Notes under the pieces: model-generated | The model's database searches: none | What the model saw: only the letters and a program-made list of their open reading frames with translations | Told to the model about the DNA's origin: nothing | NCBI GenBank assembly: GCA_001275005.1 | Contig: JWZX01001884.1 | Location: 1-34,617, forward strand | DNA: 34,617 bases | Source of the DNA: Chrysochromulina tobinii | Taxonomy: Eukaryota | Reading direction: 5' to 3' | Made by a program: the position numbers and the translations under genes | Part shown: positions 7,083 to 34,378 of the stretch, piece after piece | Numbering within the stretch: the first letter of the stretch is position 1 | How the letters are laid out: each line of letters opens with the position of its first letter

Positions 7083-10000
7083 TCAGCCACGGAGAGCTCT
7101 CGCCGCCGGCGCGTTTGGCTCCACACCAAACTGGGGCGGCCTGGCTCGCATCGACTTGGGCGGTTTCTCCTTGGCGGCGCCCCGCGGGGTGGACGGCTTC
7201 ATCTCCTTGTCCTTCTCTTTCGCGTGATCTTTAGTGTGATCAGGGGGAGCTGGAGGCTTGACGCCGCCGCGCTTGGTGGTGGCTCCGCCGCCTCCCGTCT
7301 CGTTGCTGGCACCCGCGGGCTTAGCGCTCAGTACGGCGCTGCTGATGCGGCTGCCACGCGGCGACGGCTCGTGCTGCGCCTGCGGCGCCTTGCGCGGGGA
7401 AACCTCGCGCCGCGTCTTCTTGCCCTTGCGCTGCCGGTCGGCCGGATCGGCGCCGTCTCGGGCACCCTCGTTCCGGCCACCCGCCGCGCTGCTGCTCGGC
7501 GCCGTACTGAGCGCCTCGTAGAGCTTGGGCGGCACGTTGAGAAGCGCCAGGATGGTGGTGACCTGATGAGGCACGCAATCAGCCTGAGGAGGGAGGCACT
7601 CAGCCTGAGGAGGGAGGCACTCAGCCTGAGGAGGACGGCACTCAGCCTGAGGAGGGAGGCACTCAGCCTGAGGAGGACGGCACTCAGCCTGAGGAGGGAG
7701 GCACTCAGCCTAATGAGGGAGGCACTCAGCCTGAGGAGGGCGGCACTCAGCCTAATGAGGGAGGCACTCAGCCTAATGAGGGAGGCACTCAGCCTGAGGA
7801 TGGTGGTGACCTGGTCCCTCAGCCACGAGGGCTCGGCACGGCGCGCGATGGCGAGGAAGGGTTCGGTGGCGTTCGCCAGGAGCATCCCCGCACGAGCGTC
7901 CGCGTCGTGCGCCAGATTAGAGAGCGTCGCGAGCGCCTGCCCGTGTGCCTCGCACCCGTCGTCACGCACGAGCTCGATCAGCGGCGCGAGAGCCCCAGCC
8001 TCCACCAGCCGCCGCTTGTGCTGCGCCGCCTCGGCGGTTTCGCCTTGGGTGAGCCCCCAGAGGGCGCAGCACGCGTGCTTCTGCGCGCTCGCACTGCCGA
8101 GCGAGAGCAGCGTCACGAGAGGCCCCACGCCTCCCACGTTGACAATCGCTCGCTTCGCGACACCCTTGTCCTTTGCAAGGTCGGCCAGCACGCCAGCAGC
8201 AAAGGCCTGCGCCTCCGCGCTCTCGTCACGGCTGAGCAGGGCCACGAGCGGCACGATGCCCCCTACCTTGACAATGGTCGCCTTGTTCTCGCCCTTGGAC
8301 CCGCCGAGGTGCCAGAGCGCCTCGGCCGCGTAACGCGCCGTCTCGAGCTTCTCCGAAGAGAGCAGGGCGACGAGCAGCGGCACGCCCCCCGCGCCCGCGA
8401 CGAGCTGCTGCCCCTTGGTGGTGGCCGCGATGCGCGAGAGGCACGCGCACGCATGCAGCTGCGCCTCGCGCTGCGCCGACGGGATGAGCATCTGGACCAG
8501 AGGCGGCGCGCCCCCCGCCCCGATCAGCGCCTCCTTGTTGGCGGCGAACTGGCTCAAGTGGAAGAGTACCTCCGCCACACGAGTCTGCAAACCGGACGCG
8601 TTGCGCCCATCGCCCAGCAGCCCGCACAGGGGCGCGATGGCTCCTTCGGCGGCGATGGCGGCGCAGTTGGCCGCCGATCGCCCCGCGAGCACCGCCAAGA
8701 TGCGAGTCGCCATGAGCGTGGCCGACGCGTTGCGCACGTGATGGAGGAGCGCCACGAGCGGCCTGACGACAGCATTCCGGTTGGCGTCGCTCGGCGCCCC
8801 GATGTGGATCAGAGCGTTCATTGCATGCCGTTGCGTCTCCTCATCCACACTGCCGAGCAGCAGCACAAGTGGGCCGATCGCGTCCAACGCGGGCCGCGCC
8901 AAGGCGAGCTGGTTCTCGGTGCAGTCGCGCACGAGGGCCTCGAGAGCGGCGGCGGCCCACTGTCGGCCCTGCTCAGTTCCCTCCGCGAGGACGCGGACAA
9001 GCGGGGCGAGACCCCCCGCCCGCGCGATGCCCAGCTGATTGTCTGCATTCGACGCGAGGTGCCACAGGGCGCGCGTCGGCGCATCCCACGAGGTGGTCGG
9101 CGCCGCCGACGCGCGCCCAGACTCGGCCGGTAACGCCGTCGCGGGCCGTTTGAGCATCTCGACGAGAGGCGCCAAACCGCCTTCCTCGGCGACTCGGATC
9201 TGGTTGATCACGTTCTGCTCCGCGAGTGCGCCGATCGCACCGGCCGCCCACCGGCGTGTGAACGCCTCCTCCACGCGCGCCTGCGCTGTCCCGGACGCTG
9301 TGCCCGGCACCGCGGACCCTTGCGCCGCCGGCGAGCCCGGCGCTGTCCCGGGCGCCGTCCCGGGCGCCGTCCCGGGCGCCGTCCCGGGCGGTGCGGGCGG
9401 CGGTGCGGGCGGCAGTGCGGGCGGCGGCACGATTTCCACTTGCGCAACGATGAGATGAGACGTCTTGATCAAGGAGCTGAGCATGGAGGACGCGCTATGG
9501 GTATGCCTGAGCTTGGTCCAGGCCGCCGAGGACGGAGGCATCGTGAGTGCCGGCCCCAAGCTGATCGGGATGACAGCCGCCGTCTCGAGCGCCATCTGCC
9601 TTGGGTGGAGCGTCGTCTCGAGCGCCTTCGTGGAGGGCTCCAGTCGACGCAGCACGGCGACCAACGGCTCGAACGCCCCTTCCTCGGCGATCATGTACTG
9701 CGTGTCGGCGTTGCCCATGCCAATGAATGCAAGGGCGCGCGCTGCCAGCGCTGACGGGCCGAGTATCGGCTCGTACAGCCATTGCACGAGCTGCGTGATC
9801 GCGCCCGCAGCCGCGATCTCGAGCTGCGTAGCATGCACCTTCGCCATGGCCTCGGCCCCGTCGCCGTCCGCTTGGGCCAAATTGGCGAGCGCGCTCGCGG
9901 CGTGCCGCTTGGCACCTGCACTCCCCATCGAGAGGAGCCGAACGAGAGGACGCACGCCGCCCGAGCGAACGATCGCCGCCTTGTTCTCGGCACGCACTGC

Positions 10001-13000
10001 ATCGTCGACGCCCTCCACCTCCGAGGTGACGCTCGCGAGGACGGAGGCCGCGTGCTCCTGGGCGGCCGTTGAGAGCTCCCGCGTGACCATCACGTTGATG
10101 ATGTCGTGGGCGCAGCACGCACGCGCGACGGCGCGTCGTGACGCGAGGTCCGTCGACTGCCAGAGCAGCCAGAGCGCGTACTCCTGCGCTTCCGCCGAGC
10201 CGAGCCGGAAGAGGCTGACGAACCTGAGGAGGGAGGCGAGCACGGGTCGTCAGCACGGGTCGTCAGCAGGGCTCGTCAGCACGGGTCGTCAGCAGGGCTC
10301 GTCAGCACGGTTCGTCAGCAGGGTTCGTCAGTTTGTCATGAGGGAGGCGGACGAACCGGTCAATGCCACCCGCCATCGCGACTGTCATACGCGTCTCGGG
10401 ACTCGTCGACGCTGCCATGTCCTTGAGCGCCGTCGCGGCGCGCGCGCGCACCGCGTCTGACTCGTTGCCAAGTAGCGTCACAAGCTGCTGTGTCACCTGC
10501 AACCAGAGGCCAACCGAGGGCCATCGGTGGGCCATGAGTGTCAGTGTCATTGCAGGGGTCCGTCAGTGCATCATCACACGGGAGCCACTCTCGGCACTTG
10601 CCTGCACTCGGATCTCCGGCGATCTGAGAGCAATGTGCGAGAGCGCCGACCCTGCCAACGATTGGCCAGTCGGCGTGCCATCGCGCAGCTGGCGAGCGAG
10701 CTCGGGGATGGCGCCCGCCTTTGCAAGTGCGCCACGGCTCTCCGAGTCGAGCGACAGGTCGCGTACCAGTCTTGTCACGTGTTCTTTCGCGCTGACGGAG
10801 CACTGCCTGGCGCCACTGCCCGTTGGCATGCTGGGCGGGGAGGCAGGTGCATGCGATCAGGTGCATGCGATCAGATGCATGCGATCAGATGCATGCTGGG
10901 CGGGGAGACAGATGCATGAGATCAGATGCCGTTGGGTGCACTCGGGTGCACTCAGATGCACTCAGTGTGCACTCCGGTGCAATCAGGTGCAATGTGCTCA
11001 GGAGATCCTGTGCAATCAGAGGCAATCAGAGGTGTCAATCTGCCCCCCTCGAGATCGTACCTTAGCATGGAGACGAGCGCCTGCGCGACAGCCCCCTGGT
11101 TGGCGCTGTTGTGGACCACGAGGGCCGCCAGGCTGGCTGCCGCCTCGGCCTTGGCCACTTCCGTGCCGCTCTCAAACAGAGCGGCCAGGGGCGGGATAGC
11201 TCCTGCCTCGGCGATACGCACGCGGTTCTCGGGCAGCGCAGCAAGGGCATGCAATGCCCCAGCGGCCGTCTCCTGCGCGCCACGCGTAAGCACAGCCGCC
11301 GCCAACCCCTCTCCCACGAGCGCGCTGGGGGCAGAGAGGAGCGAGATCAGTGGCGCGAGGCCGCCCTCGTCGGCAATGCGCCGCTGGTTCGCCTCGTGCG
11401 CCGTAGCTAGCGCCCATAAGGCTCCGGCCGCGCTCTGAGAGGTCATCAGAGCATTCCGACGGTCCTCAACTGCGCCGCTCACGCTGAGCAGGGCGATGAG
11501 CAAGGGCACCGCGCCGCACTCGGCGATCGCGGCTTGATTCGCCGGGTTGGACGCGCCGAGGTTCCACAGCGCACAAACGAGCTCGCACGGCAGGTACACC
11601 ACTTCAGAGGGCAATGCTCCACATGTACTCTCCGTGGGTGCCACCGGCGCAGGGTACACTGGCGTCGTGTTGGGCACATGTTCGGCGCGCGCCGCCGCCA
11701 TCCGCGCCGTCTCGAGCGCCGTCTCGGCTCTCAAGAGCTCAACGAGTGGCTCGATGGCACCCACAGCTGCGAGGGACACCTGTGGGGAGGGAGAGGAGGA
11801 GGTCATCGGGCTGTGGAAAAGGGACGTCGGTGGGAAGGAGGGCTGTGGGCGAGGGCTGTGGAAGGGATGTCTGTGGGAAGGAGGGCTGTGGAAGGGGGGC
11901 GAGGGCTGTGGAAGGGATGTCTGTGGGAAGGAGGGCTGGGGGTGAGGGCTGTGGAAGGGCCACCTGGTTGGCTGGATTGGAGCGTGCGAGGCTCGCGATC
12001 GCACGTGCCGCTTTGGCGGCCGTCTCGGCCTCCGACATGCCCGGACTGCCGCTACCTCCTGGGCCCTGTGTGGAGCGACCTGCGGAGCGCTGTGCGGCGG
12101 CGGCGGCAGCCGGTGGTGGCCGTGGTGGTGACGGCGAGGTCAACAGCTTGCCCGACGACGATGTCGGCATGGTCGTGGGCGCCGTGTAGGTGGGTGAGGC
12201 CGCGGCCGCCGACGCAAAGGAAACCTTGCGCGCCGCCGCCGCCGCCGTCTCTCGATGCCCTCTTTGGCCGAGAAGCCCCACAATCTGGGTCGCAATCTCG
12301 TCGCGATTAGACGGATGCTCAAGTGCGATGGCCGCGAGCGCTCCGGCCGCCTCGCGTTGCGCACGCACGCCACCCGCGCCCACAAGCGCCACGAGCGGCG
12401 CGATCCCACCCGCGATCTGGATGAGCTCCTGGTTGGCGGCATGGGGACCGGCGGCCAGGGCCCAGAGCGCCGCCGCGGCCTCCTCCCTGGCAGCGCTCGC
12501 CACGCCGGGCTGCTCGAGTAACCACACGAGACGAGGGATGCCACCTGCCCTCGCCACCTCGGTCTGGTTCAGCCCGTGCTCACGACTGATCTCCCCGAGC
12601 GCCTTGGCCGCGTGCGCACGCACCTCGTCGTCGTGCGTCGCTCCCTCAAGGAGGCGCACGAGCGGCAGCACGCCACCCGCGACTCGGATCGCCTCCTGGA
12701 TCGTCCTGCTGCCTCGCGCGAGGCTCGCCAGCGCCCCCGCGCCCTTCAAATTGCACCTCGCGCAGGTCTCCCGAAGCAGCTGCACCAACGGCCCGATCGC
12801 CGACGCTCCAAAGATGAGCTCCTGCGTCTCCGCGTTGCCGTCGGCGAGGGCCCAGAGGGCGCCTGCCGCCTCTGAGCGCGCGTGAAGCATCTCGAGCGCC
12901 GCCTCGTCCATAGGCGTGCCGAGCTCCTCCTGCACTGTCTGACGAACCTCTGACGAACCCCTGCCGAGCTCCTCTTGCGTTGCCTCCGCGGCGGCGGCGG

Positions 13001-16000
13001 CGGCGGTGGCGGCCGCGGCGGCGGCGGCGGCGGCGGCGGCGGTGGTAGTGGCGGCGGCGGTGGTGGTGGTCGTGGTGGCGGCAGCGCAGCGATGCACGAG
13101 CGGTTCGATGGCGCCTTCTTTGGCCACCAATATCTGCACCGTACTCGAGCTCGCGCACATGTCCGCAAGCACCGCCGCTGCCTTGGCCTGCGCCAACGGA
13201 CTAGTCGAGCCGAGGAGCGCGATGAGTGGCTTGATGCCCCCCTTGCTCGCAATCTCTTGCACGTGCTCGACCGAATCGCCGGATAGGTGCTTGAGCACGG
13301 CGGCCGCAAGCTCTTGCGCCTTGAGGCTCGTCGATCCGCCCCCCTTGATTTGCAATACCAGCCTCTCTATAGCGCCGGCTTCGGCAATCGCGCGACGGTT
13401 GTCCTCATTCTCGGCCGCGAACTTGAGGAGCATTTGGGTCACGTGCACCTGCCCCTCGGCGGATCCCGCGCCGAGCAGAGTCACCAAGCCCGTCGCAATC
13501 GCCAGTTGGTTCGACGGGTCGCCTTGGGCGAGGCATGAGAGGGCTCCGACGGCGGCTTCCTTGGCCGCGATCGTGCCGCTGCCCAGCAGCGCAACGAGGG
13601 GGGAGATGGCGCCCGCGTTGACGATGCGCCCAGGCGCCCCAGGGTGGCTCGCGGCGAGATCCCACAGCGCACACGCGGAGCGTTGCTGAGCGCCCTCGTT
13701 GCGGCAGCCGAGGAAGCTCACCTGATGAGGGAGGCCATACGAGACCGTCAGAGAAAATCAGAGGCCAGCACAGATCTGCAGAGGCCAGCAGGAGGCCACA
13801 TCAGTGGCCACAGCAGAGGCCATCAGAGGCTCACCAGCTTCTTTGCAATCTGCGCTTGGATGTCGGCATTGTTGCGCGCGAGCCGATCAAGAGCCTCCGC
13901 CGCATACACAGCCGCCTGCTCCGTCCCGTCATCAAGCAGCTGCACAAGAGGCCCGATGCCCCCCGCCTTGGCGATGGCGAGCTGGTTGCCCACATCGACG
14001 GACAAATGCCACAGTGCCGACGCGGCTCGTTCCTTCGAGAGAGGCGCCCCCGTTGTGACCAGTGCCACGAGTGGGATGATGCCTCCGGCGGCTGCGATGG
14101 CGCTCAGTCGATCGCCGCCTCTCCCAGCCGTCGTGGCGGGCAATGCAGCGGCTGTCGCCGCTGCGCCCCGCTCGGATGCATTCGTCGCTGTGGGTTCGTC
14201 GCTTGCCATCGAGAGCCCCATCCCACAAGCCTCAGCACCGGCGTGCTCCACAGTCGGTTCGACCGTCGTGCTCTCCGCCCACGTGAACGAGACCACCATG
14301 CCATCGCTCGCCCTCGCATCCACATGGCACTCGAGGCTGCTCACAATGGCTAGCGGGCCTGCATGCTTCTCACGAGAGGCGCTGGTGGACGCGGCAGCTC
14401 GAGTCCCGTCCATTGCGAGCTCGCCGCTCTCGTCACCGCCACCCGCCTCCTTCAGCTGGTGCTGGTGCTGGTGCTGGTGCTGGTGCTGGCGCACCGCCTC
14501 GCGGGCTTCCCGTTCGAGGATTGCCCCCTTGGCAAGATCCGAAATGACAGCGGCCGCGAGCTCCTGCGCCTTGACGGATCCGGAACGTGAAAGCGCCACG
14601 AGCTCGGAGATAGCCCCCGCCTCGACGAGCGCGCCCTGGTTGGCGGTCGAGGCGCACAGGTGCCAGATGGTGCGTGCCGCGTTCTCCTGCGCAAGGCTTG
14701 AGCCGAGGCGGATGAGTTTCAGGAGCGGACCGACCGCGCCGTGCGCGATGATGCTCTCTTGCATGGTCTGGTCGCTGTACGTGAGGTCGGCCAGCGTGGC
14801 AGCGGCTTGCTCCTGGATGCCAACGACGCTGGACGCTGCGGCGGCACGCTCCGGGTGCTCTGCATCCGCGGCGGAAGCTGCAAGTGCTGCGCCCTGGTCC
14901 ATGCCGAGTACGCCCGCGGTGAGCTCCCACATCCTCGTCGCCGTCTTCTTGTTTGGGATCGCGTGGAGCATCGAGATCACGCGCGCGACGCCGCCCGCTG
15001 CCGCAATCGCACGACGGCGCTTCTCCCCTGGCTTCCCCGCCACCGGCACCCACTCCATGCGCCCAAAGATCCTGCCCTGCGGCTTGAGCTCCGCCTCGAA
15101 GTCGATCACATTCTCCGTCCGGAGGCCGTCGAGGCTTACGAAGGCCTCTCCAATCTGAGTGTCCTTGGCCATCGGATCGTCGGCAGACACGTCATCCGAG
15201 TCGAAGACGCGCACGACGAGCCCGCTCCGGACCCCCAACGGCGCGTTCCCCTTCCCGTTCCCACTCCCGTTCCCGTGCGCGTTCCCGACGAACTCCGCCA
15301 GGGCCCCTTGCATCACAATCTCCTCCTCCCAGATTGGGTTGAGCGTCTTGGGGATCACTCTCGTGCGCCGTATCTGGCCCGCCGACGAGAGCGTCGCATA
15401 CGGGTCCGATGTACCTGCAGATCTCGACAGTGGCCATCAGAGGTCATCAGAGGACATCATGAGGTCATCAGAGGATGCAGTGGCTAGTGGCCATCAGTGG
15501 CCATCAGTGGTCATCAGTGGTCATCAGTGGTCATCAGTGGTCATCAGTGGTCATCAGCGGCAGCCCGAGGAGGCAATGTACCTGCGGATCTCGACGCCGG
15601 TCGCCGACGATCCGAGAGGGCGCCGTCCAGAGCGCCGCCCCCGCTCGCGTCTGGCGCCTCGTCCGCTGCAGCGAGCTTCACCGCCTTGCGCACGAGGATG
15701 CGCATCTGCCCATGGCCGCTGAGCCGCGCACGGAGCTCTTCCTTGATCTGCGCGCCAGCCTCGGACGTGCCTGTTGGAGCTTCGGGCAGTGAGCCGCCAT
15801 CGTCGGGCGTGTCACGCGCGTCCCTGGCCAGGTGCGCGAGGGCGCGCGCGGCAGTCTCTGGCGTGCCCGGCACCGCGCTATCGAGCAGCTCGACGAGCAT
15901 GGCGATGCCGCCCGCGTCAGAGATCGCGTCCCTATTGACGGGTGCCAGCCCCAGCTCGGCCAGCGCGGCGGCGGCTTGCTGCTGCGCTGCGCTCGACCCT

Positions 16001-19000
16001 TTTCGAAGCAGTGCGACGAGTGGCGAGACGCCTCCTACCTCGGCGACGGTCAGTGATACGATCGGATTCGAGCGACTCAACCGTCCGATAACAACGGCCG
16101 CGAGCTCTTGCAGATGCTCATCCTCGCTCGAGAGCAGCTCGACCAGGGGCGCCAGCCCACCCGCCTGCGCAATGACCACCCCCACCTCACTGTTCCCCGC
16201 GAGATGCCAGAGAGTGCGCGTCGCGTACTCCTTCGTCTCGAGGCTCGCCTTGCTCACGAGCTCAATGAGCGGCTGGATGCCGCCCGATTTGGCAATGGTC
16301 TCCTGCAGCACAAAGTGATTCGTCGCGAGAGAGAGCAACGCTCGCGCCGCCTCGCGCTGCGCGTCCATATTAGGCACGCGAACGTCCAGGCCGCCGGAGA
16401 TCCACGAGATCAAACTGGGCACCGCGCCCGCCTTCGCCAATGCGAGCTGGTTGGACGGGTTCTCACTGGCAAAGGTCGAGAGGCATCGAAGGACGCGCAC
16501 CGCGCCGCCCGCCGTCTGCACCATCGCGATGCGAGAGGCCAGTCGACCGACGAGCTGCTTGCAGATCTGCTCGCGGTTATCGGGATGCTTGCCCGCGAGG
16601 CTCACGAGGGCGCTGACGGCGTTCGCCTGTGATGACGTGTCCGCACCCGCCTCTGCCCATGCACCGCCATCGACGAGGAGGCTGACCAGAGGCTCGATCC
16701 CCCCCAGCTTGGCGATCGTCGACTTGTTCGAGACGTTGTCCTCCGCGAGGGCCCATATGGTGCGCGCGGCGGCGTCGCGCACCTGCGACGAAACCGCACG
16801 TAACCACACGGAGCCATCGGGTGTGGAGTCAGAAGCAGGTCTCTGGCGTGCCATCAGAAGCAAGTCTCTCGGATGCAAATCAAGAAGCAGGTCTCTCGCA
16901 TGCAAATCAAGAAGCAGGTCTCTCGCATGCAATGGGGTGTACTCAGCGCAGTCCGCATGCAATCAGGCGCCAACGGGTGTGGACTCAGAAAGGGATCCTT
17001 CACACCTCGTCGCTGCCATCCTTGACAAGCCCGCACAGTGGCGCGATGGCTCCCGTGCGTGCGACAGCCGTCTGGATGTCAGCATGGTTGCGTGCAATCG
17101 AGGCGAGCGCCATCGCCGCGTTCGCCTGCATCTCGGCGATCGGGCTCGAAAGCACGGTGATGAGGGCCGGGATGACGTTCGCGTCGGACATGGCCGACTG
17201 GTTGGTTCGGTTGCCCTCGCACAGCTGTGCGACGGCGCGTAACGTGTTGTTCACCAGCTGCACCGCGCCCATCATCTCCTTGCTATTTGAGCACGTGCTC
17301 ACCAGCACGTTGGCAATGAGAGGCACGCCGCCCGCATCGGCGATCCGCTGCTGGATCGCATGCGACTTGTACGCGAGCTGCGTGATTGCATTGACCGCAT
17401 TCTCCTTGGCGCGCGCTGAGCCGCCTAATAGCGCGAGCAGGGGCTCGATGCCGCCCGCGTCCACAATACTGAGCCTGTTGTCCGACGAGTCCTGCGCGAG
17501 GTTCGCGAGCGCAGCCGCCGCCTGTTCCTGTGCCCACGAGCCGTCCACCTCATCAAAGGGGTTGTCGTCGAGCATGCTTACGAGCTTCTCGATGATGAGT
17601 TGACGGTTGGCGTGTTCGATCGAGAGTCGCACCTGAGGAGGGAGGCACTCGGGTGATGAGGGAGGCACTCAGCCTGAGGAGGGAGGCACTCATGTGCACT
17701 CAGACCGTGACGAGGGCACCCTCGGTAGTCAGGGAGGCCACGGCCATCCCGGCTATCCGGTCACTCGCGAGGCCATCACGCCCATCACGCCCATCACGCC
17801 CATCACGCACGAGAGCGCCCTCGGCATGGTTGCGTGCGCGCGTGTTGTTCGTGCCGAGTAGCTGCACAAGAGGCCCGATGCCACCTGCCTCCGTGAGCTC
17901 GAGTCGGTTGGCGGCGTTGGCGGCGAGGGCGTAGAGCGCGCCCGCCGCCTCCTCCTGTGCCTTGTCGCCACAGGAGCCCCCGAGCAGGTTGACCAGCGGC
18001 GAGGTGGCACCCGCGACCGCAATGGCCATCGCCACATTGTCGCTGTCGTGCGCGAGGCGAGCGAGCGCCGAGGCGGCAAACTGACGGCCGGCGTCCCGCC
18101 CATTGTTGAGCAGCTGTACCAGAGGAGCAATGCCCCCCATGCCCACGATCTGGCCGCGATTGTCGGCGACGAGCGCTAACTCGGCGAGCGCCGCCGCCGC
18201 GTATTCTCGCGCACCCTCTCCCTCGTCATCTTGGGCCGTGCGGGGAGTTGACCTCGCATCCACAATCGCGATGAGGGGTGCGATGCCGCCCGTACTCGCA
18301 ATGTCCTTCTGCGCGGCAGTGCAGCCGCTCGCGAGGCGATAGAGCGCGGCGGACGCCTGCTCCCGCGCCACGCCGCTCGCGCTGCGCAGTGCCGTGATCA
18401 GGGGCTGCACGCCCCCCTCGGCCAGGATGATCGACTGGTTGCTCGTGTCGATGGACAACGACAGAGACCAGAGGGCGTAGTCCTTCGCCTCCGCCGCGCC
18501 ACGCTTGAGGAGAGTGATCAAGTCGGCCGCGGCGCCCGCACGGGCGATCTGGGCCTGTGAGCTCGGATTCTCCATCACGAGCTGCCACAAGCAAGTCGCC
18601 GCCGCCGACATGACCTCGAGGGCACCGGCCCCGAGCAGCGCCACCAGCAGGGACGTCACCTGCGCCTGGTTGGCCACATTCTCCTTGCCGAGGGCGAGGA
18701 GGGCGCGGGTCGCAAGCTGCTGCCCTCGCGCACCTCCTGTCGCGAGGAGCATGATCAGAGGTGCGACCCCGCCCGCGGATGCGATCGCCACCTTGTTGGG
18801 CATCTGCTGATCCGCGAGTGACCACAACGCACCCGCCACCTCGGCCTTGACTTCTGGCGTGCCTGTCCGAATTAGAGCGACCAGCTGGGTGATAGCGCCA
18901 AGGTCCGCCACGGCGCCCTGGTTGTCAGGGTTGTCGCGGCAGATGGCGGCCAGGGCGAGCGCTGCCATCGCCTGCATCTCGGGCGTGCCGCTCGCGCTCA

Positions 19001-21376: not shown

Positions 21377-24300
21377 ATGGAAGCCTCGCTAGAGGGGCCG
21401 CCGCAGGCCTCAATGAGCGCGCGGCTTGCTGCGCTCCAGCTGCATTCCTGCGGGAACAGCAGCAGTGGCACTCAGTGGTGGGCAGAGCGCGCGGCGCTCG
21501 ACGGTATCGCCGTGGAGCTCGAGGCCTCCAACTTTGTCGTCCTGGACTCGGTCCTGGGCGCATCAACAGTGGCGTCGTTGAGAGCGGAGGTGGAGGGCGT
21601 GCGGCGCGCAGGGCGGCTGAAGGCGTCAGAGCTCGGTGGTGGACGCACGGGCAGCAACGTGGCGTTCACGCGAGCCGAGGCCCGAGGCGACAGCATCGGG
21701 TGGTTCACTGGCGGCGAGGCAGCGCTCTGGCCGGATGGTACGCTGGCGCGGTATCTCGACGTCCTCGACGGGCTGATGGGCGCGCTCGGGAAGCGTGTGC
21801 CACAGCTTCGGGCAACCACGAAGCGCTCGAAGGCGATGATAGCCTGCTACCCGGGCAGCGGCGCGCGCTACGTGCGCCACCACGACAACGCGTGCAGCCG
21901 GAGCGAGGGCGAGCAGTGCAACGGGCGGCGGCTCACGGCCATTCTGTACCTCAACGAGGGGTGGGAGGTTGCCCATGGCGGCCATCTGCGCCTCTACCCG
22001 CCGTACAAGCCCGACGCAGCCAAGGAGGCCCTGCAGGAGCTGCAAGCGTGGTTATTGACGCAGCACGACGCTCCCGATGCTGAGATGGTCGCGCACACTT
22101 TTCACGAGCGGCTCGCGGAAATCACGACAAATGACGATGCGCCGCCGTTGTGCGACGTGGCACCGATCGCCGACCGCCTCATCCTCTTCTACTCGGACTA
22201 CCGCGTGCCGCACGAAGTGTTGCCTGCCCATCGGGATCGACTGGCGGTGACCGTCTGGTATTTCGACGAGGACGAGCATGCCCGAGCGTACAAACCCTCG
22301 GAGGAGACGGACGCGTACGAGGCGCTAGCGGTGGCGAAGCAGATGCGTCGATGGCGCTCGGACGCCGCCGCCACGGGCGGTGGTAGCGCCGCCGACGCCG
22401 CCGCGCCTCGGGGCGTGACTTCCTTATTTGGAAGTACCGAGTCTCTGGACGTGCCCGGCATGGAGCTGTGCCCGATCCCCGACAAGGGACTCGGCCTCAT
22501 CGCGACCCGCGCCTTTGCTCCCGGCGAGCGCCTGATTGCCGAGGCGCCTCTGGTGCTCTGGGAGAGTGCGCGCGGCGCGGACGGCGAGCACAAGTGGTCG
22601 GTGCTTGAGGAGCTCGTGGAGGCGCTTCCGGCGGGCTCACGGCGCGCGTTCGATGGTCTCATGGATAAGTACGCTCCCGACGACCAGTTCAAGACCGCAA
22701 GAGGCATCTGGAACACGAATGCCTTTCGCACGGAGGATGTTCTCGGCGACGGCAAGGCGGCGCAGTGCGATGGCGTGGAGCGATCCGCCGTCTTCCGAGT
22801 GTGTTCACGCCTCAACCACGCGTGTCGTCCGTGCGCGCACGTCGCATGGAGTGCACGCTTGGGGCAGCAGACGGTGCACGCGGTGCGCCCGATCGCGGCG
22901 GGCGACGAGGTAACCATCGCATACGTCGCAGGCGCCGATTGCATGCTGATTGCAACTGATTGCCTCCCTCATCAGGTGACCATCGCATACGTCGCAGGCG
23001 CCGATTGCATGCTGATTGCAACTGATTGCCTCCCTCATCAGGTGACCATCGCATACGTCGCAGGCGCCGATTGCATGCTGATTGCAACTGATTGCCTCCC
23101 TCATCAGGTGACCATCGCATACGTCGCTGGCGCCGAGGCGGGCGGCCGAGCAAGCCGCCAGGCCCACCTGCAAGCGAAGTATCATTTCGGCTGCGTGTGC
23201 GATGTGTGCGAGCTACGCGGCACGGCGCAGCAGGCGAGCGACGATCGCTTCGAGCGGCTTGCATGCATCCACAAGACATTGTCGAGCGTGCCGCCTTTGG
23301 AGCTCGAGGCGACTGTGGCGGAGAGTGTGGCGCTTCTGAATGCGGAGGGGTTGCCTCTGGTGTGGGCGAAGGCAGGCATGCTGCTCGTCATCGTGCAGCT
23401 CAAGCAGTCTGCCCGTCTCGGCCGCGCCGCTCACTGGGCTCGTCGAGGCGCCGCCGCAGCCACCTTCGCTCTCGGCGACGACTCGGCCACATTCCTCAAG
23501 TTTGCCAGCTTGGCGCAACTCTTTGGGCAAGCGGCGGGGGACGCCGAGGACGACGCGCCGGACACCCCCGACGATGCAGGCCGTTGGGCGTGGCTTCCTG
23601 CAGCGAGGGCTGTATGTGCCGCCGCGAAGGACGTCGCCGCTCCGAACGGCGCCCATCACGGCGCTCAGCACGCCGCTCCGAACGGCGCCGCCGCCGACGC
23701 CGACCCGGCACCGCCGTCCGATGCGGACGAGCCCTCGATGCACTCCGTCTACGTGGCTGGTGAGGGGCCGACGATCTTGCCCTCCTAATTGCCTCCTAAC
23801 TGCCTCCTAATTGCCTCCTAATTGCCTCCTAATTGCCTCCTAATTGCCTCCTAATTGCCTCCAGGTGAGGGGCCGACGATCTACGAGCGCGCCCAGGACG
23901 ACGCCACATGGCTGGCCGACGGCCGTGCAGGGCCGCGCGTGCTGCGCTTCGGGCTCATCAGCCATCGGCAGCGCTGGGCGCATCGACTCTGGCCGGCCGC
24001 GCAGGTGCTCGCGGCCCATCTGGATGCGCATCCAGAGCATGCACGCGGCCGAGCCGTCCTCGAAGTCGGCGCAGGCGCGGCGCTCCCGTCCGTGGTCGCC
24101 GGGCTGCTCGGCGCGTGCGCGGTCGTGACCAGCGACTGGCCCGACGCGCGAATGCTGGCCAACACGGCTGCGAATTTGAACGCCAACTTGGCGCCGGAGA
24201 TGCACCAGCGCGTGATGGTGGTCGGATATGATTGGAATACGCCGCCCCACCCGCTTCTGGGCGCGCTCGATGCGATCGTGAGCGGCGGGGCGCGCGCTGC

Positions 24301-25248: not shown

Positions 25249-28200
25249 TTACGACACCTCGACGGCGGCCGCGCTGCCCTGGGCATGGCGTTTCGCCTGA
25301 TCGAGCTCGCCAAACGTCTTGACCGTGCAGTCCCGCACGCTCCAAAACTCGGTGACGGCCCGTTGCAAAAAGTAGGCATCGTGGCTGACCACGACGACGG
25401 CGCCCGTGAACTCGCGCAGCGCCGTCGCGAGCACATCGACCGTCTCCATGTCGAGATGATTGGTGGGCTCGTCAAGGAAGAGGAGGGTGGGCTCGGACCA
25501 TGTGATCGCGCACAACACGACGCGCGACTTTTGGCCGCCCGAGAGCTTACCCATGGGCAGCCACGACATGCCGTCGACGATACCGAAGCCGCCCAGCCGA
25601 GTGCGCACCTCGGCCTCCTTGGAGCCGGGGAAGCGGGCCATCAAGAACTCAGTCGGCGTCTGGTACAGGTCGAGCTGCTCCACAAAGTGCTGTGCGAAGA
25701 TGGCAGAGCGCGCGCTCCGGTTGACCTCGATGGTCCCAAAAGTCGCCGCGAGCTGCGAGGTCATCAGCTTGAGTAGGGTCGACTTACCCGCTCCGTTGGC
25801 GCCGAGGATGCCAATCTTGGAGCCGAGGGAGACGGAGAGGCTCAGGTTGCGCAGCAAGATCTTGGGTATCGCTGGGGGGGGGACTGAGTACCCAAAGGCG
25901 GCGTCCGTCATCGTGACTAGATGCGGGCGCTTGAGCGGCGGCGGCGGCGGGAAGACGATCGCGATCGTGGCCTCATCCGTCTTCGCATCCGGATCGGCGA
26001 CGACGGCCCTCGTCCTCCATCTTCGCCAGCTGCTTCTCGCGCTGCTTCGCCTGCGCCACCACGCCCGCATGCCTCTTGTTCTTCTTGTTGTCCGCGCTCG
26101 AGTTCTTCGCAGGGTCGTACTTGTCGACGAGCTCCTGCATGTGCTTCCTCTCGAGCTGCTGCGCCTCGTACCTGTGCGGAGAGGGAGGGCGCCGTGGTGA
26201 GCTCGAGCGCCGTGCCGAGCGCTCGCATGCGCCGCCTCCGCTCGCGCCGCCGCGGGCGCCTCGTACCGCCGCTTTTGAGCGATGCGCTGCTCAGCCATGG
26301 TCTCGACGTACGCGGAGATCGAGCCCTTGTAGTGCGTGAGCGTCTTCGACTTGATCTGGATCACCTGAGGAAGGTTGCACTCGGCAGGCACTCAGCAGGC
26401 CCTGCCGCATCGCAGGCGCTCAGAGGTCATCATCAGAGGCCATCAGCTTCGAGATCGGATCTGGATCATCATCAGAGGCCATCAGCTTCGAGATCGGATC
26501 TGGATCATCATCAGAGGCCATCAGCTTCGAGATCGGATCTGATCATCATCAGAGGCCATCAGCTTCGAGATCGGATCTGGATCACATCCGAGACGACGTC
26601 GTCAAGAAAGCCGCGGTCGTGCGAGACGATGAGGATCGTCGCCTTGCACGCCTGCAGCCACTTGGTCAGCCAGACGAGCGCGGGGAAGTCGAGGTGGTTC
26701 GTGGGCTCGTCGAGCAGCAGCACCTGCAATCAGAGCCAATCAGCATGTAATCAGCATGCAATCAGCATGCAATCAGAGCCAGGTGGTTCGTGGGCTCGTC
26801 GAGCAGCAGCACATCACACGGCACAAAGAGCGCCGCCGCGAGCGTCACGCGCATGCGCCATCCGCCAGACAGATGCTCGATCGGAGCGGAGGCCGTGGCG
26901 GCTGAGAACCCGAGCCCCGAGAGGATGGCGGACGCCCGTGCCGCGGAGCCGTCGAGATCGAGATCTGCCATCAAGGCCTCGGTCTCGTCCAGTCGCTTCT
27001 TGAGGCGTGCGTACACCTTCTCGTTCACGCTGCGCGCCTCGGCCGCCTTCGCATCGGCATCGAGCGCCGTACCGAGCGCCGACGCCGCGTCCGGGGCGAG
27101 AGCCTCCGTCGCCTTCGCCACGGCCTCCGCGAGCTCCGCGTGCCGCCGGCGCAGAATCTGGCCCTCGAGATCGTACCTAATGAGGGAGGCCATCAGAGGT
27201 GGACTCAGAGGGGCACTCGGAGATGCTCAGCCATGGTCTCGACGTACCTAATGAGGGAGGCCATCAGAGGTGGACTCAGAGGGGCACTCGGAGATGCACT
27301 CGGAGGCAATCACGTGCAATCAAGAGCACTCAGAGGCAATCAAGAGAGGCAATCAAGAGAGGCAATCAAGAGAGGCAGTCAAGAGAGGCCATCAAGAGAG
27401 GCAATCAAGAGAGGCTATCTGGTCCTCGCGAGATCGTACCCGAGCACCGTCGCGAGGGGGGTGGAGCCGAGATCGTGCATCGGGTCCTGCTCGACGTACA
27501 CGACCTTGAGATGCTTGGGAAAGCTCGGCAGCTCATAGCTCGCGATCGCCTTCAGGAGCGTGGTCTTGCCAGTGCCGTTGCGCCCGACAAGGCCATACTT
27601 ATGGCCCTGGGAGAGGCGCAGCGACGAGGTCTCATCGAGGAGTGTCTTGCCGGCGCCGGAGAGGAGGATGAGCGATTTGATGGCGACGTCGCGCGAGCCG
27701 CCCGCCGCCTTCGAGGCGAGGTACAGCTCGCACGCCTGCTCTCGCGCGCGCTGCGCCGCCGCCATCTCCTCCTTCTCACGCTTGCGGATCACCTCCAATG
27801 CTGGCGCACCGAGCCGAAGGGTGCCGAACTTGACGCCGCCGTTGCCGCCGCCGTCCTCCTCATCGTCATCGGGTTTGACACCGTCCAATGTGACGGTGCG
27901 CGTGGCTCCATTGGCTCGCGCAGCGGCCGACTGCCGGTTGCCAAAGGCGTCAACCTCCTCGTTGCCGATCCCACCGATCAAATAGTTGGCCACCTTGGAT
28001 GTGTCGTCACCCATTCTGAACGGCTTGTTGAGCAGGGCCGGTGGCGCATTGTCTGACGCTGCACTCGAGGATGCTGCCGGCGCGACGCTCCCGAGTCGCT
28101 CGTGCAGCGTGCGGCACATGGCTTCCGCCGCATCTTCATCCGCGGCCAGCTCATATGAGATCAGTAGGTCCCGAAGCGCTTCAGAAAGGGATTCCACGCT

Positions 28201-28577: not shown

Positions 28578-31500
28578 TCATTCCAAGTCCATGCTGATCA
28601 GGCGCAGCTCGTACAGATGCCTGAGCCGCTCGATCACGTCCTCCTTGGTCACGCTCCCCTCCGACTCGGCTGCAAGGTCCGCCGCGAGGCGCGCCGCGCT
28701 CGCGCCCGCGCCCGGGACGACGCGTTCGAGCACCTCGAGCTCGAGCGGATCCGCAAGCTCGAGCCACGTGTCCTCGCCCTGGCCCGCGTCCTTGGCGCGT
28801 ACCTCGACGCGCACGGGCACGCCGGCGGCGTCGGATACGGAGCGCGACGCAAAGGGTCGACGCTGCATCGGTACCGCCCTTTGGAGCGCCTCTGCCTCTT
28901 GGGGGGGGCAAGGAGGACGTCGGGTGAGCACGCCTCATCACAGCATTCACAGCATTCGCAGCATTACAGGACTCACAGGCAAGGACGTCGGGCGAGCGCG
29001 CCTCATCTAGTCATCAGAAGCCATTCGAAGCAATCCGAAGCAAACCAAGGGTAAGCAATCCAAGGCAAGCACCCATCGATCCATCAGAGGCACTCGGAGG
29101 CCATCCGAAGCCATCAGACGCAAGCACCTGTGGGAAAGGGCCGCCGTCGGATGAGCCTCCCATGGAGCACGAGGAGCGGCAATCAGTGGCAATCAGTGGC
29201 ATGCGCACCTGTGGGAAAGGGCCGCCGTCGGATGAGCCTCCCATGGAGCATGAGGAGTGAGAGCGCCTCGTCCGCCTCGAGGAAGCAGGCGAGGGCGTCG
29301 CGTGGCGACTCGACGATGGGCATGCGTGCGAGGTTGAATGAAGTATTCAACAGCATGGGCACGCCCACGAGGGCAAAGAAGGCGGCGATGAGCGCGTGGT
29401 AGATCGGCGCGTCGGCCTCGCCCACGGTCTGCAGCCGTGCCGAGCCGTCGACATGGGTAATCGCGGGCACTTGCTCGCGCACCTCTGGCCGCACCGTCGC
29501 GGTGATCTGCATGTAGGGCGACGCCAAGGTCGGCAGCCCATCGAACCAACTGTCGGCCTCCTCCGCCAGTACCGACGGGGCGAGTGGCCTCCATTGCTCG
29601 CGTTGCTTGACATGGTTGACCTTCCAATGATTCTCGGCCATCGCGGGGTTGGCGAGGATCGAGCGATGACCGAGCGCGCGCGCGCCCACCTCGGCGCGAC
29701 CGTTCACCCAGCCGACGATCTCCCCGCGGGCGAGCGCCTCGGCCGTGTACTGCAGCACTGCCGCGGAGGGGGCATCCCAAGCGCCGTCCCGGGCGCCGCC
29801 CCGCGCTGCGGACGACGGGCCGGTTGCGGCGCCGTACTGGGCAACGGCGCCGTCCTGGGCTCCGGCGCCGTCCTGGGCACCGGCGCCGGCGGCCGTCTCC
29901 GCAGTGCTGGTGGGCCGCGCGGCCTCGAGCTCGGCCTCGAGCTCGGCCTTGATCTGGGCCGCGAGCTCGGCCTCGAGCTCCGCCTCGAGCGCTCGATACT
30001 CCTCAAGATCCTCCGCTGAGACGAAATCCTCATCAGTCTCGTCATCCACCGAGCCCCCATCGGGCGCCGTCCTGGGCGCCGCGGCGAGTGTCACCTCCTC
30101 TATCCACGGGCTGAACTCGTCCATCGCCGCCTGCACCTCCGCCGCGCTGTACGCGCGCCCCATGCATGCAGGCCACGGGCTGCCGCGACGCGCCGGCGCG
30201 GGCACCCCCAGCTGTGGCAGGAGCGCATGGAGCGCGTACGCGGCGCAGCCCGCGGCAATGCCCTCGTCTCCCGGGTACGGGGGAATGAAGACATGCTCAA
30301 AGCCCGCCTCGCGCGCCACGCGTCCATTGAGCACGGAGTTCTGCACCACGCCTCCGACCAAGCACAGGTTCGTCTCGCCAGTCTGCTGCTGCAGCCGGCA
30401 GAGCCACTCGAGGGTCACCTGAAGACTCATCAGTCGTCATCAGTCGGTCATCGGTCGTCATCAGTCGTCATCAGTCGGTCATCAGTCGGTCATCAGTTGT
30501 CATCAGTCATTCATCGGACGTCATCAGTCGTCATCAGTCGGTCTCAGTCGTCATCGGTCGTCATCAATCGTCATCAGTCGGTCATCAGTCATCATCAGTC
30601 GTTAATCAATCGGTCATCAGTCTCACCTCTTCGAGATCCATCTGCACGCGTGCCGCGAGGGCCGCATACGCGCCCCGCATGCTCGCCTGCGCGGCAGGCA
30701 GCTCGGAGCGCTCCGCCAGGATCTTGGGCCCGAGCGCCTTCTGCAGCGCGCGAAAGCCATTGATGGGCGGCAGTTGATCGAATGCCTCCAGGGCGTCCCA
30801 TTCAAGGTGAAGCGCCTCGCCGTCCTCGCCGTCGAGCTTGCCGCGGAGCAGCGGCGTGCTCAGCAGGCGCGCGTGCACGGGGTCGCGCTGGACGTCCGCC
30901 CACGTGCCCGCCCACGGCGCGAGCCCCATCACCTTGCCGCATGCATTCCAGTCGCCAAAGATGTGTGACGAAACCCTCGAGTAGAGCGCGCCGACGGACT
31001 CGAGATTCTCAAACCCATGATTGTAGAGTTCCGAAGGCGAGCGCTGGGGTACCCAGCGCTTGAAGACGCGTGAGAGGGCGGAGCCCTCGAACAGGTACGC
31101 GCTCTCAGCCTCGCGGTGGCCAGGCGGCGCTCCGAGCGTCGACGAGCCTTGCGGCACCGCCACGTAGCCCGTAGCCTCAGGCAGTCGCAGGTCGTGCATA
31201 TAGTGAGTGTCGTCCCGGGCGGCCTGCATCGCGGCGAAGGTCTCGCCCATGCCGTCCATGACGACCACGAGGCCGCGCTCAAAGGGCGCCTGCGTGATCG
31301 CGCACCACACGTGCGCCAGATGGTGCGAGAGCTCAAAGTGCGGCACGCCCGGAAGTAGGTTGTCGTCTGAGAGAGCGCTGGTCGCGTACAGCCCCATCGG
31401 AACGCTCCACGGCAGCCGTCCCTCAAAGGAAGCAACGCGGTGATGGTGGTTGTTGGCGCACACGGCCACGACGTCCTCGATGGAGCTTCCGACGGCCTCG

Positions 31501-32880: not shown

Positions 32881-34378
32881 CTAGACAGCCCGCGTCTTCT
32901 CCTTCTCGTCTGCTCTGCCACGACTGACGATGGCCGCGATCGATGCCGCAAGCCCGAGCCCCAGTGGCAATGTGTTCAAGCTCAGCCGGCGCGCCTCCGC
33001 GGGCGGAGCCTGGCCATCCGCGAGCTTGTGAAGGATCTCATCGGCGATGGCGCCCTCGACGATGTCGAGGCGCGACTTGAGTGGGAAGGTCGAGGCTACT
33101 TGGCCCGGGGTCGCCTTCGAGATCACCACCGCGCCCTCGTCGGCCGACAAAGCTGGCTTCACCGCGGAGGCACCCACTCCCTCTTCTTCAGAGCATGCAA
33201 GGAGGGCGGCGAAGATCATGAACACGCCGCCTACCCAGGTGCCGATCGAGACGGGCTCCCGAAGGGCCAAGTAGCCCATGATGCCCGCAAAGAGCGGTTG
33301 GAGCGCAGCGAATGGCTGTGCCTTCGCGGCAGAGATGGAGCGCATCGCTTCGAATTGGACTGACGAGGAGAGGAATCCGGGCACGAAGACCCCGAGCGCC
33401 ATCAGCCCAAACTGGGCCAGTGGAATGTGACGAATGCGCCGAACGGTCGCCGCAGAGGGTCCTCCGCGAGCCACGTCGAGGAGCATCACTGCCGTCGAGA
33501 TCCCTCCCATGTAACACATGCGAAGGAGGTTGAGGGAAGCCGCGCTGACCGATTGCAAGTGAACAGTCGTACGCACGCGAAACCACCCGTAAAGGAAGGC
33601 GCCCACCTGAGGACGAAAGCCATCGAACGCCATCGAACGCCATCAGAGGCTCACTCAGAGACGCAATCAGCTCGAGCCACCGCAAGGCACTCACCACGAG
33701 TGCAGCTGCCCCTCGGAGATTCAATGCAGCGGAGGTCATGCCGCTGCCATCCTGAATTCCGTCGACGACCGCCACGAGGACGGCGGCGCCGAAAGCCAAG
33801 CCGCACGCGGCCCATGTGCGTGCGCCAAAGTCACCCAGTCCGAGCAGCACCGACAGAAGCGGTACGAAGACGTTGTCGGTCGACTGGAAGATCTCCGCCA
33901 TCGCAGCGGGGACTCTGCAAGTTCCCCACACCGAAAAGAAGGAACAGAGGACCGAGAGCAGAGCGAGCTCAAAGGCGGCGAGATGCGGGCTCTGCTCGCT
34001 GTCGGATCTACCCTTGGCCCTGTCGGGCTCGCGTCTTGCCATAAAGAACTGTATCGTGCGAGTGATGGTGGCCAGGAGGCAGAGAACGTTGTAACGGACA
34101 AACACTATGAAGATCATCCCGAGCGGCTCTGCACCGGGAACCGTAGCCAACGATCGCAGGAAGACAGTGTAGCTTCCGAAACCCGCGTTTGCGAGCAGCA
34201 AAAGCAGCTTGGCACGGGCCAGAGCACCTGCCGTGACAGGAGTAAGGCCTCCTCGAAGACGATGTACGGCCGTCGCGTGCACATCCTTCGGAGTAAACAT
34301 CAAAGGCCGGCTCTGAACCCGGGCGTCGACGCTGACGGTAGCCACCAGGCACACGAGCAGGAAGCAGCTGGGAGGCAT
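32881..34378 (-). CDS. Drug/metabolite transporter (EamA/DMT) family protein with N-terminal signal-like extension, ~469 aa, 2 exons
   Basis: Exons 34378-33695 and 33606-32881. About ten hydrophobic segments. EamA motifs 'VFVPLLSVLLG' and 'ISAAKAQPFAALQPLFAGIMGYLALREP....W.GG..I'. Confidence 0.8.
33607..33694 (-). other. GT-AG intron with 12-nt diverged junction duplication
   Basis: G|GTGAGTGCCTT versus G|GTGGGCGCCTT. Contains CTGATTG and (TTCGATGGC)n. Joins 'AAALV|VGAFLYG'. Confidence 0.85.

Follow-up and report, generated by a model that had tools for sequence, protein, structure and literature searches.

How new spliceosomal introns originate is an open question, and bursts of intron gain are credited, in the available sections of PMC12130899, to transposon-derived Introners. 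The question raised by the present locus is how approximately half of its introns came to be bracketed by two copies of their own gene's sequence. In this study, we analyzed a 34,617-nt stretch of DNA from a haptophyte alga (the window), in which all 19 introns of the set, each starting with a GT or GC donor and ending in AG, were located. They are spread over five genes, each of which becomes a single open frame once the introns are removed, in agreement with the claim of a previous reading of the DNA by its letters alone (the sequence-only reading) that splicing restores the proteins. The open frame of the ABC-F gene additionally requires the skipping of one extra window base at 26004, which is absent from all four sequencing runs compared. 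The observation as a whole proved largely real, and was confirmed in part in the form in which it had been claimed.

An in-register exon duplication of 12–32 nt was identified at 10 of the 19 introns (Table 1; introns are named by their first position). The sequence-only reading had counted 13, of which ten were upheld; the evidence at 11780 and 33607 is borderline, and in 28898 the copy does not lie at the junction. A junction repeat score of at least 11 was obtained for 10 of the 19 true donor/acceptor pairs versus 2 of 342 mismatched pairs. When other exon positions were swapped in, the observed junction score was not reached in any of 818 trials for seven of the ten duplication-flanked introns, nor equaled in any of 2677 trials for 19101; it was reached in 1 of 818 trials for 26172 and in 4 of 818 for 15415. 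The identity between intron ends and exon ends, whose comparison with controls had been proposed beforehand and was run on the introns of the window, is far above both nulls for the ten duplications.

The duplication supplies the donor in all ten duplication-flanked introns and contains the AG as well at 7563, 15415, 19101 and 22910, as had been asserted for the donor in general and the acceptor on occasion; the duplicated stretch contains (C)AG|G at 15415, 19101 and 7563. Most echoes of the exon start at the splice junction, 0–3 nt upstream. In six of the ten cases the duplication includes only 0–1 upstream bases, so that the AG is supplied by non-exonic filler. The lengths are variable, as claimed, and not of the short fixed 3–9 bp type of target-site duplication (TSD) seen in MITE-type Introners with terminal inverted repeats (TIRs). 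Duplication events internal to introns measure 53–55 nt.

Table 1. Introns of the window and one exon stretch, with junction duplications and interiors.
Feature	Position	Strand	Junction duplication	Interior and other observations
ARM-repeat gene intron	7563..7810	-	17 nt, exact	Filler of 11 tandem 21-nt acceptor-like units; splicing deduced from frame
ARM intron	10224..10356	-	14 nt, 1 mismatch	Tandem filler of 13-nt units; DNA unitigs contain both junctions
ARM intron, GC donor	10497..10601	-	Not significant (6 nt)	
ARM intron	10807..11060	-	No local duplication	Acceptor deduced from the reading frame and the spacing of ARM repeats; DNA unitig 10281-11876 runs across it without a break
ARM intron	11780..11963	-	Borderline: 6 nt exact, 11 nt with 1 mismatch (58/818)	
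ARM intron	13722..13834	-	Borderline: 7-nt exact repeat (12/818)	Shared acceptor module at end
ARM intron	15415..15581	-	20 nt (14 upstream + 6 downstream, 1 mismatch), gives AG and GT	10-nt tandem filler
ARM intron	16783..17005	-	Not significant	27-nt tandem filler
ARM intron	17633..17810	-	None at junction	Decayed internal copy of upstream exon end at ~17711; 35 nt in common with intron 7563
ARM intron, GC donor	19101..19197	-	16 nt, 1 mismatch (12 exact)	
SET-domain intron, 2OG-oxygenase/SET/methyltransferase gene	22910..23107	+	31 nt, 2 mismatches	66-nt unit (duplication plus acceptor module), three copies in window, five in L002; splicing not in RNA
Intron	23760..23864	+	19 nt, exact	11-nt tandem filler
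ABC-F intron 4	26172..26266	-	12 nt, exact	Non-repetitive filler; spliced in RNA
ABC-F exon 4 stretch	26288..26311	-		Source of 24-nt insert in intron 27177
ABC-F intron 3	26365..26585	-	12 nt, exact	39-nt tandem units including echo; spliced in RNA
ABC-F intron 2	26724..26812	-	32 nt, exact	11-nt filler; splicing deduced from homologues
ABC-F intron 1	27177..27439	-	12 nt, exact	Internal 55-nt duplication of own 3' end; spliced in RNA
Carbamoyltransferase intron 2	28898..29208	-	2-nt repeat	Internal 53-nt copy (49+4, 1 mismatch) of upstream exon end and donor; second donor at 29127; spliced from outer donor in RNA
Carbamoyltransferase intron 1	30419..30626	-	6-nt repeat only	Tandem filler of 10-nt units; retained unspliced in one RNA-library contig that crosses it
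EamA-gene intron	33607..33694	-	Borderline: 4 nt exact, 12 nt with 2 mismatches (20/818)	Spliced in RNA

Splicing was observed directly for 5 of the 19 introns, and all 19 are needed for open frames or for alignment to homologues. Among the joints listed for region 21300-34400, at least five of nine introns (26172, 26365, 27177, 28898 and 33607) are represented, each seen in two to three runs of RNA but absent from the DNA run, and three of these five (26172, 26365 and 27177) are duplication-flanked. None of the 12 introns in region 7400-24000 was spliced among the joints listed there, where RNA cover of the ARM gene is thin, which is not evidence against splicing. The confirmation by RNA junctions looked for by the sequence-only reading thus extends to five introns and not to the other 14. 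We set aside as noise the 15 joints listed for 7400-24000, which connect copies of repeats, and likewise 10 of the 15 listed for 21300-34400.

Short tandem repeats, which had been said to make up most interiors, were found in 17 of the 19 introns, all except 10497 and 26172. The introns have a GC content of 59% versus 68% in exons, and their filler is rich in branch-point-like CTGAT/CTGAC/CTAAT motifs. The shared vocabulary proposed earlier holds loosely, whereas no whole-length family is seen within the window, where 5 of 171 intron pairs share at least 15 nt; the fillers draw on a loose set of motifs and have a 14-nt acceptor end in common, rather than forming a single element. This acceptor module terminates five of the 19 introns, with a variant ending a sixth, and is found at the end of four of the ten duplication-flanked introns (7563, the variant, 10224, 22910 and 27177). 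It is also present on many other contigs, with many loose ends and, at 23087, a summed depth of ~10,700 versus ~37 on the flanks, which is not a copy number. A module common to many contigs and to introns' ends suits a mobile family and argues against a repair reading. All echoes and 42 of 42 vocabulary matches in introns are in sense orientation, a pattern chosen post hoc that fits an RNA template as well as selection.

TIRs were absent, as claimed, with the shuffle test negative at all 19 introns: the best inverted matches were 2–6 nt, and the lowest value was 10 of 200 shuffles (one intron), the others being at least 36. No poly(A) tail was seen in the introns and no reverse transcriptase (RT) or endonuclease was identified among the 28 window frames scanned. 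Scans for filler motifs returned no matches in viral contigs or in genome contigs, as did a search of Rfam. The fillers of the window are not of the TTAGGG type, and the host's own telomere unit may differ. A small hairpin between a branch-like motif and the acceptor (5/6 pairs) was observed in 3 of the 19 introns; the branch and acceptor consensus sequences are complementary by nature.

Two fillers contain foreign exon pieces, with sources 0.9 kb and 16 kb away, and these point to template-switch repair. Intron 27177 holds a 24-nt copy of ABC-F exon 4, from 0.9 kb off, flanked by two copies of the 55-nt stretch and with microhomology of 5 nt and 3 nt at its joints, while the donor end of intron 10807 is a 17-nt exact copy of ABC-F 27162-27178, in another gene 16 kb away. 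The background level for such foreign matches is 13–14 nt, and both pieces are also present in independent assemblies or unitigs. Beyond the echo, the interiors are unlike their flanking exons. At the joints between echo and tandem filler, microhomology was just 0–2 nt at the 12 junctions tested (nine in the window and three in relatives), which counts against the repair reading.

The claim of a recurrent mechanism was borne out in relatives, whose orthologues have repeats of 11–33 nt arranged in this same layout at 5 of the 12 positions that could be tested, and in which there are empty sister sites. Telomere-like filler of the CCCTAA/GGGTTA type was found in relatives L004-L008 and L010, and in one L010 intron GGGTTA repeats are followed by CCCTAA-type repeats, the order that would result if a break had each of its ends extended before the two were joined. 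Site b has an intron in L004 and L005 and is empty in L006-L009 and the window; site l has one in L006-L008 and P0122 and is empty in L004, L005 and L010. At site b of L005 the intronic copy reads TAC, as in the empty sites, and the exon copy TTC, the intronic copy having retained the ancestral codon. This layout, with telomere-like filler and empty sister sites, supports gain by target duplication. We left L003, P0001 and P0002 out of the empty-site count as they lack introns but are possibly transcripts, and left L011-L013 (46% over 26 aa) and a cut-off intron at the end of L009 out of the comparison. A candidate decayed echo at site d of L006, which needs an indel and has an in-register score of 0, was not counted, and an unbiased repeat scan of five relative loci revealed no further convincing cases.

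Introns of the window were compared with distant orthologues; for none of them was a close relative identified in which the site is empty, and the gains in the window are thus undated. A sister strain is represented in run X20, whose organism differs by about 1%. Empty sites of the kind that the sequence-only reading had proposed to look for are seen at the relatives' sites b and l; in distant orthologues the sites of 27177 and 26365 are empty and those of 26724 and 26172 are occupied in some. The site of 26365 is empty throughout L004-L010, the position of 26172 is common to L006-L008 and L010, and that of 26724 to L006-L008. Two of the four ABC-F positions thus coincide with introns of relatives that are 77–79% identical in coding sequence (P 0.020-0.035, post hoc), and the objection that the positions might be ancient and shared is in part borne out. 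These common positions suggest that some duplications may renew old introns, although they may also reflect parallel gain at GT sites.

The explanation we favor, with about an even chance of being correct, is that the ten duplication-flanked introns are products of staggered-break repair with templated filler, in which the site of the break becomes duplicated and the gap is closed with sequence from short templates. Offset nicks would have their ends filled in, giving a duplication of variable length. Template-switching synthesis by a presumed enzyme, whose products are the fillers seen here, would then add branch-point-like sequence, often ending in the acceptor module, using as templates the 3' ends of other introns or nearby exons and, in relatives, a telomere-like repeat. 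With a left copy starting GT or GC and an AG before the right copy, the insert would be spliced out and the protein left unchanged, a step that is documented for the five introns seen in RNA and deduced from frames and homologues for the rest; exon events that cannot be spliced would be purged. Slippage or unequal exchange between the copies could later amplify units, as at 22910 and 26365, or delete the intron exactly. Because existing splice sites are affected in 28898, 17633 and the 3' end of 27177, the process likely renews old introns too, and new introns would likely keep being made by it. In the staggered-cut and templated-synthesis model as originally proposed, target duplication, templated filler and recurrence stand, whereas the echo-filler joints have scarcely any microhomology and the count is 10, not 13. 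A broader proposal, which we put forward tentatively, is that haptophytes run a standing, element-free intron factory in which RT-like healing of staggered breaks copies short RNA templates (the telomere repeat in one lineage, branch-point/acceptor repeats here) and the duplicated target gives the donor; the same process would rewrite old intron ends, and the flanking repeats would permit exact deletion, so that introns would be gained, renewed and lost rapidly at sites used more than once.

The main rival to staggered-break repair is a retro-mobilized Introner, a doubtful but serious contender. A short non-autonomous RNA ending in the acceptor module, perhaps from excised intron 3' ends, would be reverse-transcribed at a nick (target-primed reverse transcription), leaving an insert with a constant 3' end and 5' truncation, and a target duplication of variable length from which the donor comes. 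The acceptor terminus common to six introns (five matching and one variant), the module's high summed depth and its many loose ends, and the sense-only orientation of echoes and vocabulary are all in keeping with this, as is the length of the duplications, since 12–32 nt is within the range of non-LTR elements. In addition, a Pavlovales Introner is classed in the available part of PMC12130899 as non-LTR, 'co-opt 5' carry 3''. However, fewer than half of the duplication-flanked introns end in the module, the fillers are diverse, the 24 nt inserted in 27177 are ordinary exon sequence, no poly(A) tail was seen, and the 28 window frames scanned include neither an RT nor an endonuclease. Less probable again, and unlikely, is that old introns were remodeled: a break in an existing intron would be partly repaired from spliced mRNA or cDNA, writing the start of the next exon before the old 3' end in an abortive intron loss, so that the repeats would date repair rather than gain. 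Such repair from spliced RNA is reported in human cells (PMC12065846, available text). Introns 26724, with its perfect echo, and 26172 lie at positions shared with relatives whose introns lack an in-register echo; the echo at site f of L006 is perfect (22/22) despite a position shared with L010, which is 9% diverged; the usual start of echoes at the junction would be expected; and L004/L005 and P0122 lack several neighboring introns in a row, a pattern known from RT-mediated loss. Remodeling is opposed by sites b and l, which have empty sister and outgroup sites, the former with its ancestral codon, by the duplication at 15415, which straddles the junction, and by the filler of 26724, which has 18 nt in common with the 22910 module and does not resemble an old remnant. 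Moreover, no echo crosses a spliced junction, the neighboring exons being too long for this to be telling.

Two simpler accounts carry far less weight. That the duplications are assembly artefacts, or that apparent splicing results from RT jumps between direct repeats, a known artefact, is hardly credible. The number of copies at 22910 does differ between assemblies (3 versus 5), and L001, L002, X1 and X12 may derive from the same material as the window. Nevertheless, the junctions are reproduced in two other assemblies and in short-read unitigs, which weighs against the concern about artefacts raised with the sequence-only reading, and L002 matches the window exactly at 11 of the 12 introns it covers, L001 at all eight. 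The introns also have GT/GC-AG ends, their interiors break the frame, homologues exist without them, and splicing in the same RNA runs is also seen for 28898 and 33607, which have no long repeats. That an exon segment with AG|GT was simply duplicated in tandem in the genome, its interior later decaying and expanding by repeats, is already disfavored and very improbable. The mechanism is established (PMC3443670, available text), and the (C)AG|G within three of the duplicated stretches would suit it, but the six duplications with next to no upstream bases have an AG that comes from filler, and the interiors differ from the flanking exons in both sequence and GC content.

These results indicate that a lineage with about half of its introns in long variable exon duplications, with filler that forms no family, would be missed by screens that cluster families. 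Such a lineage offers many recent, datable events with which repair-based and RNA-based gain could be tested in a cultured alga. If some echoes lie on old introns, however, junction repeats are no proof of recent gain.

The gained introns of Daphnia resemble those described here in their target direct repeats, heterogeneous inserts, lack of TIRs and staggered-break model, and their flanking repeats are reportedly 5–12 bp long. Direct repeats flank 43% of them (PMC3443670, available text), whereas here repeats of 12–32 nt flank 10 of all 19 introns and supply the donor, and the filler is a splice-signal-like or telomere-like repeat with nearby exon pieces. Tandem genomic duplication at AGGT, in the same source, likewise has a duplicated exon that gives splice sites and leaves the protein unchanged, but here the interior is not exon-derived and the acceptor is usually from filler. 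The TIR-less, TSD-bearing Introners of haptophytes share with our introns the lineage, the co-option of a splice site from the duplicated target and the absence of TIRs; they differ in forming near-identical element families with short or fixed TSDs, rather than 12–32 nt and no one family, and, unlike those published, the process here duplicates existing splice sites too. The genome paper of E. huxleyi is said to remark on 10–11-bp intronic repeats. In the available parts of PMC9860276, Introners of a Chrysochromulina sp. MAG have a 4-bp TSD, TSDs are 3–9 bp in general, and Prymnesium MAG families have a TSD and no TIR (among rows 3–32 of 155). For E. huxleyi, fam24, with 5 copies, is described as '10bp terminal direct repeats, co-opt 5' carry 3'' (PMC12130899, available sections).

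Introner-like elements of Polarella glacialis and Symbiodinium also recruit the donor from the duplicated target: in the accessible text of bioRxiv 10.1101/2020.10.14.339549, classes 4, 5, 6, 8 and 10 take the donor from the TSD and the acceptor from the insert, and class 14 derives donor and acceptor alike from the TSD. They differ in being transposon families with a class-fixed TSD of 3–8 nt and, in Symbiodinium, inverted repeats. SD-MMEJ/Pol-theta and patch-mediated repair in rice similarly combine duplication with templated nearby pieces and microhomology, whereas here the templates are 0.9 and 16 kb away and the echo-filler joints lack microhomology. In the available portion of PMC7407515, insertions in rice join a tandem duplication to pieces templated from nearby, and they are not presented as regularly giving rise to spliceable introns. 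The telomere repeats in relatives L004-L008 and L010 resemble those placed at repaired breaks when telomerase makes interstitial telomeric insertions, as it is known to do. A literature search, which reached few subscription journals and supplements in part, found no paper on long variable exon duplications at haptophyte introns. Set against the accessible portions of this literature, haptophyte Introners with a TSD and without a TIR are known already, and what is new are long variable duplications with non-family filler.

The window is GC-rich eukaryotic DNA in which introns occur in five genes: a very long ARM-repeat gene, a 2OG-oxygenase/SET/methyltransferase gene, an ABC-F gene, a carbamoyltransferase gene (best named homologue in Prymnesium parvum, 63%) and an EamA transporter gene; the other genes are predicted to be intronless. 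On the strength of the Prymnesium match we regard the organism as a haptophyte. Nineteen introns were located, each starting in GT or GC and ending in AG, and once they are removed each of the five genes reads as one open frame. Homologues align without a break across all the junctions of the ABC-F gene (four) and the carbamoyltransferase gene (two). Contigs spliced at introns 26172, 26365, 27177, 28898 and 33607 (named by their starts) were each present in two or three of three RNA runs, so that among the joints listed at least five of the nine introns of that stretch are spliced, and a DNA run showed none of these joints; a second, thinly covered RNA comparison had a spliced joint at 0 of 12 introns among those listed, and one RNA-library contig reads across 30419 unspliced. 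The window's introns are identical in two other assemblies (11 of 12 and 8 of 8 of those covered), the sole mismatch lying at 22910, where the array of 66-nt units has five copies in one assembly (L002) versus three in the window, and most ARM-gene junctions were recovered without differences in short-read unitigs. Since these DNA sources may be the window's own material, the agreement tests assembly only.

Coordinates of features in the window and in two ABC-F relatives (L009, L010)
Position	Strand	Feature	Observation
4203-6206	+	Leucine-rich repeat gene	Seven 84-nt repeats; apparently without introns
7083-19998	-	ARM-repeat gene	At least 3,700 codons; ten introns; embedded C2 domain
10807-11060		Intron	Donor reproduces, without mismatch, 17 nt of ABC-F sequence from 16 kb away
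21106-21200		C-terminal coding tail of VTT-domain gene	Two antisense copies of intron-filler vocabulary plus a 12-nt tandem repeat; covered unspliced by an RNA contig; possibly an unspliced, exonised insertion
21356-24952	+	2OG-oxygenase/SET/methyltransferase gene	2OG-Fe(II) oxygenase, SET and Methyltransf_16 domains within one frame
22910-23107		Array of 66-nt units	In frame, with no stop when read in the exon frame; a retained or partly spliced array would put 22-residue repeats into the protein; part covered unspliced by an RNA-library contig
26004		Surplus base	Shifts the ABC-F frame; absent from all four sequencing runs compared; one gap apiece in assemblies L001 and L002; probably an assembly error
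26288-26311		Exon sequence	Copied exactly (24 nt) inside intron 27177
31812-31819		Near 31815	Additional letters with a short repeat on the flanks in X20, a ~1% divergent read run
32017-33083		Region 32000-33000	Several small indels in X20
L009 1734-1853, 2055-2153, ~2238 onward		Three introns	Alike 5' starts; both complete introns end in an 11-13-nt upstream-exon copy supplying AG, the mirror image of the window layout; candidate Introner family
L010 419-518		Intron	GGGTTA repeats, then CCCTAA-type repeats; no duplication; absent from close relatives L004-L008

Direct copies of exon sequence at the junction are called echoes here. An in-register repeat scoring at least 11 (12-32 nt) was found at 10 of the 19 introns versus 2 of 342 mismatched pairs. 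When the downstream exon was swapped for other exon positions, eight of the ten repeats were never equalled (0/818 or 0/2677), and the remaining two were equalled 1/818 and 4/818. Ten of the 13 duplications originally claimed stand. Those at 11780 (58/818) and 33607 (20/818) are borderline, and at 28898 the 53-nt copy, though real, lies within the intron, where it duplicates the upstream exon end and donor, with RNA showing the outer donor in use. Six of the ten repeats extend only 0-1 bases to the upstream side of the junction and so supply the donor alone, with AG coming from the rest of the interior (the filler); the repeat at 15415 spans both sides (14+6). As a whole, the earlier interpretation of a recurrent intron-creating mechanism is partly supported.

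Tandem repeats are present in 17 introns, and branch-point-like motifs number 127 on the sense strand versus 25 on the antisense. An identical 14-nt acceptor module, common to many other contigs of the DNA run, ends five introns and a variant ends a sixth; only 5 of 171 intron pairs have 15 nt or more in common. A search of the introns for TIRs found none, as the sequence-only reading had stated. Two interiors carry foreign pieces longer than background exact matches (up to 13-14 nt). The 24-nt insert in 27177 is flanked on either side by a copy of 55 nt from that intron's own 3' end, with microhomology of 5 nt and 3 nt, and the 17-nt ABC-F copy lies on a unitig spanning its intron unbroken. 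Both look like duplication combined with a templated insert, without the involvement of an element. Where an echo meets tandem filler, 0-2 bases match at each of the 12 joints tested, which counts against a simple microhomology model.

Scanning with the ABC-F linker alignment gave 437 candidates, of which 13 loci were confirmed: two from the same organism, one intronless, three weak (dropped) and seven intron-bearing orthologues (L004-L010) with 77-79% identity to the window CDS. Repeats of 11-33 nt occur at 5 of their 12 testable intron positions; L005 and L006 echo the start of the downstream exon and have CCCTAA-type filler, and L009 echoes the upstream exon end ahead of AG. L004 and L005 have an intron at site b, where L006-L009 and the window have none; in L005 the intronic copy retains TAC, the codon found at the empty sites, and the exon copy has TTC. 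The intron at site l is in L006-L008 and the relative P0122, with L004, L005 and L010 empty. Both sites fit gain with target duplication, and the L010 intron resembles a break whose two ends were each lengthened by telomere repeat before being rejoined.

Other distributions speak against gain alone. L006 and L010 have introns f and i in common, yet L004/L005 and P0122 lack them (tree support at the inner forks 82/77 and 86/88), a pattern implying either exact loss or gain in parallel. Two of the four window ABC-F introns, including 26724 with its perfect 32-nt echo, match echo-less introns of L006-L008 in codon and phase (post hoc P 0.020 for 59 GT sites, 0.035 for 32 GTR sites), suggesting that part of the echoes may be younger than the introns carrying them; the sites of the other two are empty in every genomic orthologue covering them.

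The most likely origin, to which we give about an even chance, is repair of offset nicks. Fill-in would duplicate 12-55 nt, template-switching synthesis would supply the filler, and selection would retain insertions that splice; later slippage would multiply units, and the flanking repeats would allow exact deletion. The products and their splicing are observed; which enzyme acts, and in what sequence the steps follow, we infer. A short Introner mobilised by a retro route is possible but doubtful. Somewhat less probable still is abortive RNA-templated loss rewriting old introns, which would make echoes younger than their introns, as may be the case at the positions shared with L006-L008; sites b and l speak against it. 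Plain tandem duplication is improbable. These three can coexist with one another. An artefact is very improbable.

Our literature search, of incomplete coverage, turned up no account of a haptophyte in which about half the introns bear long exon duplications of variable length, and the gain and loss of haptophyte introns is called an open question (PMC8379373; related papers are PMC11282704, PMC4580454 and PMC8469720). Every ingredient of the proposed process is already published. Intron gain is tied to tandem duplication and to repair with direct repeats (PMC3443670), and templated insertions (PMC7407515) and RNA-templated repair (PMC12065846) are described. Among known systems, Introners co-opt a short TSD as a splice site, TIR-less haptophyte families among them (PMC9860276, bioRxiv 10.1101/2020.10.14.339549), an E. 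huxleyi family is listed with 10-bp terminal direct repeats, and a Pavlovales family is classed as non-LTR (both PMC12130899).
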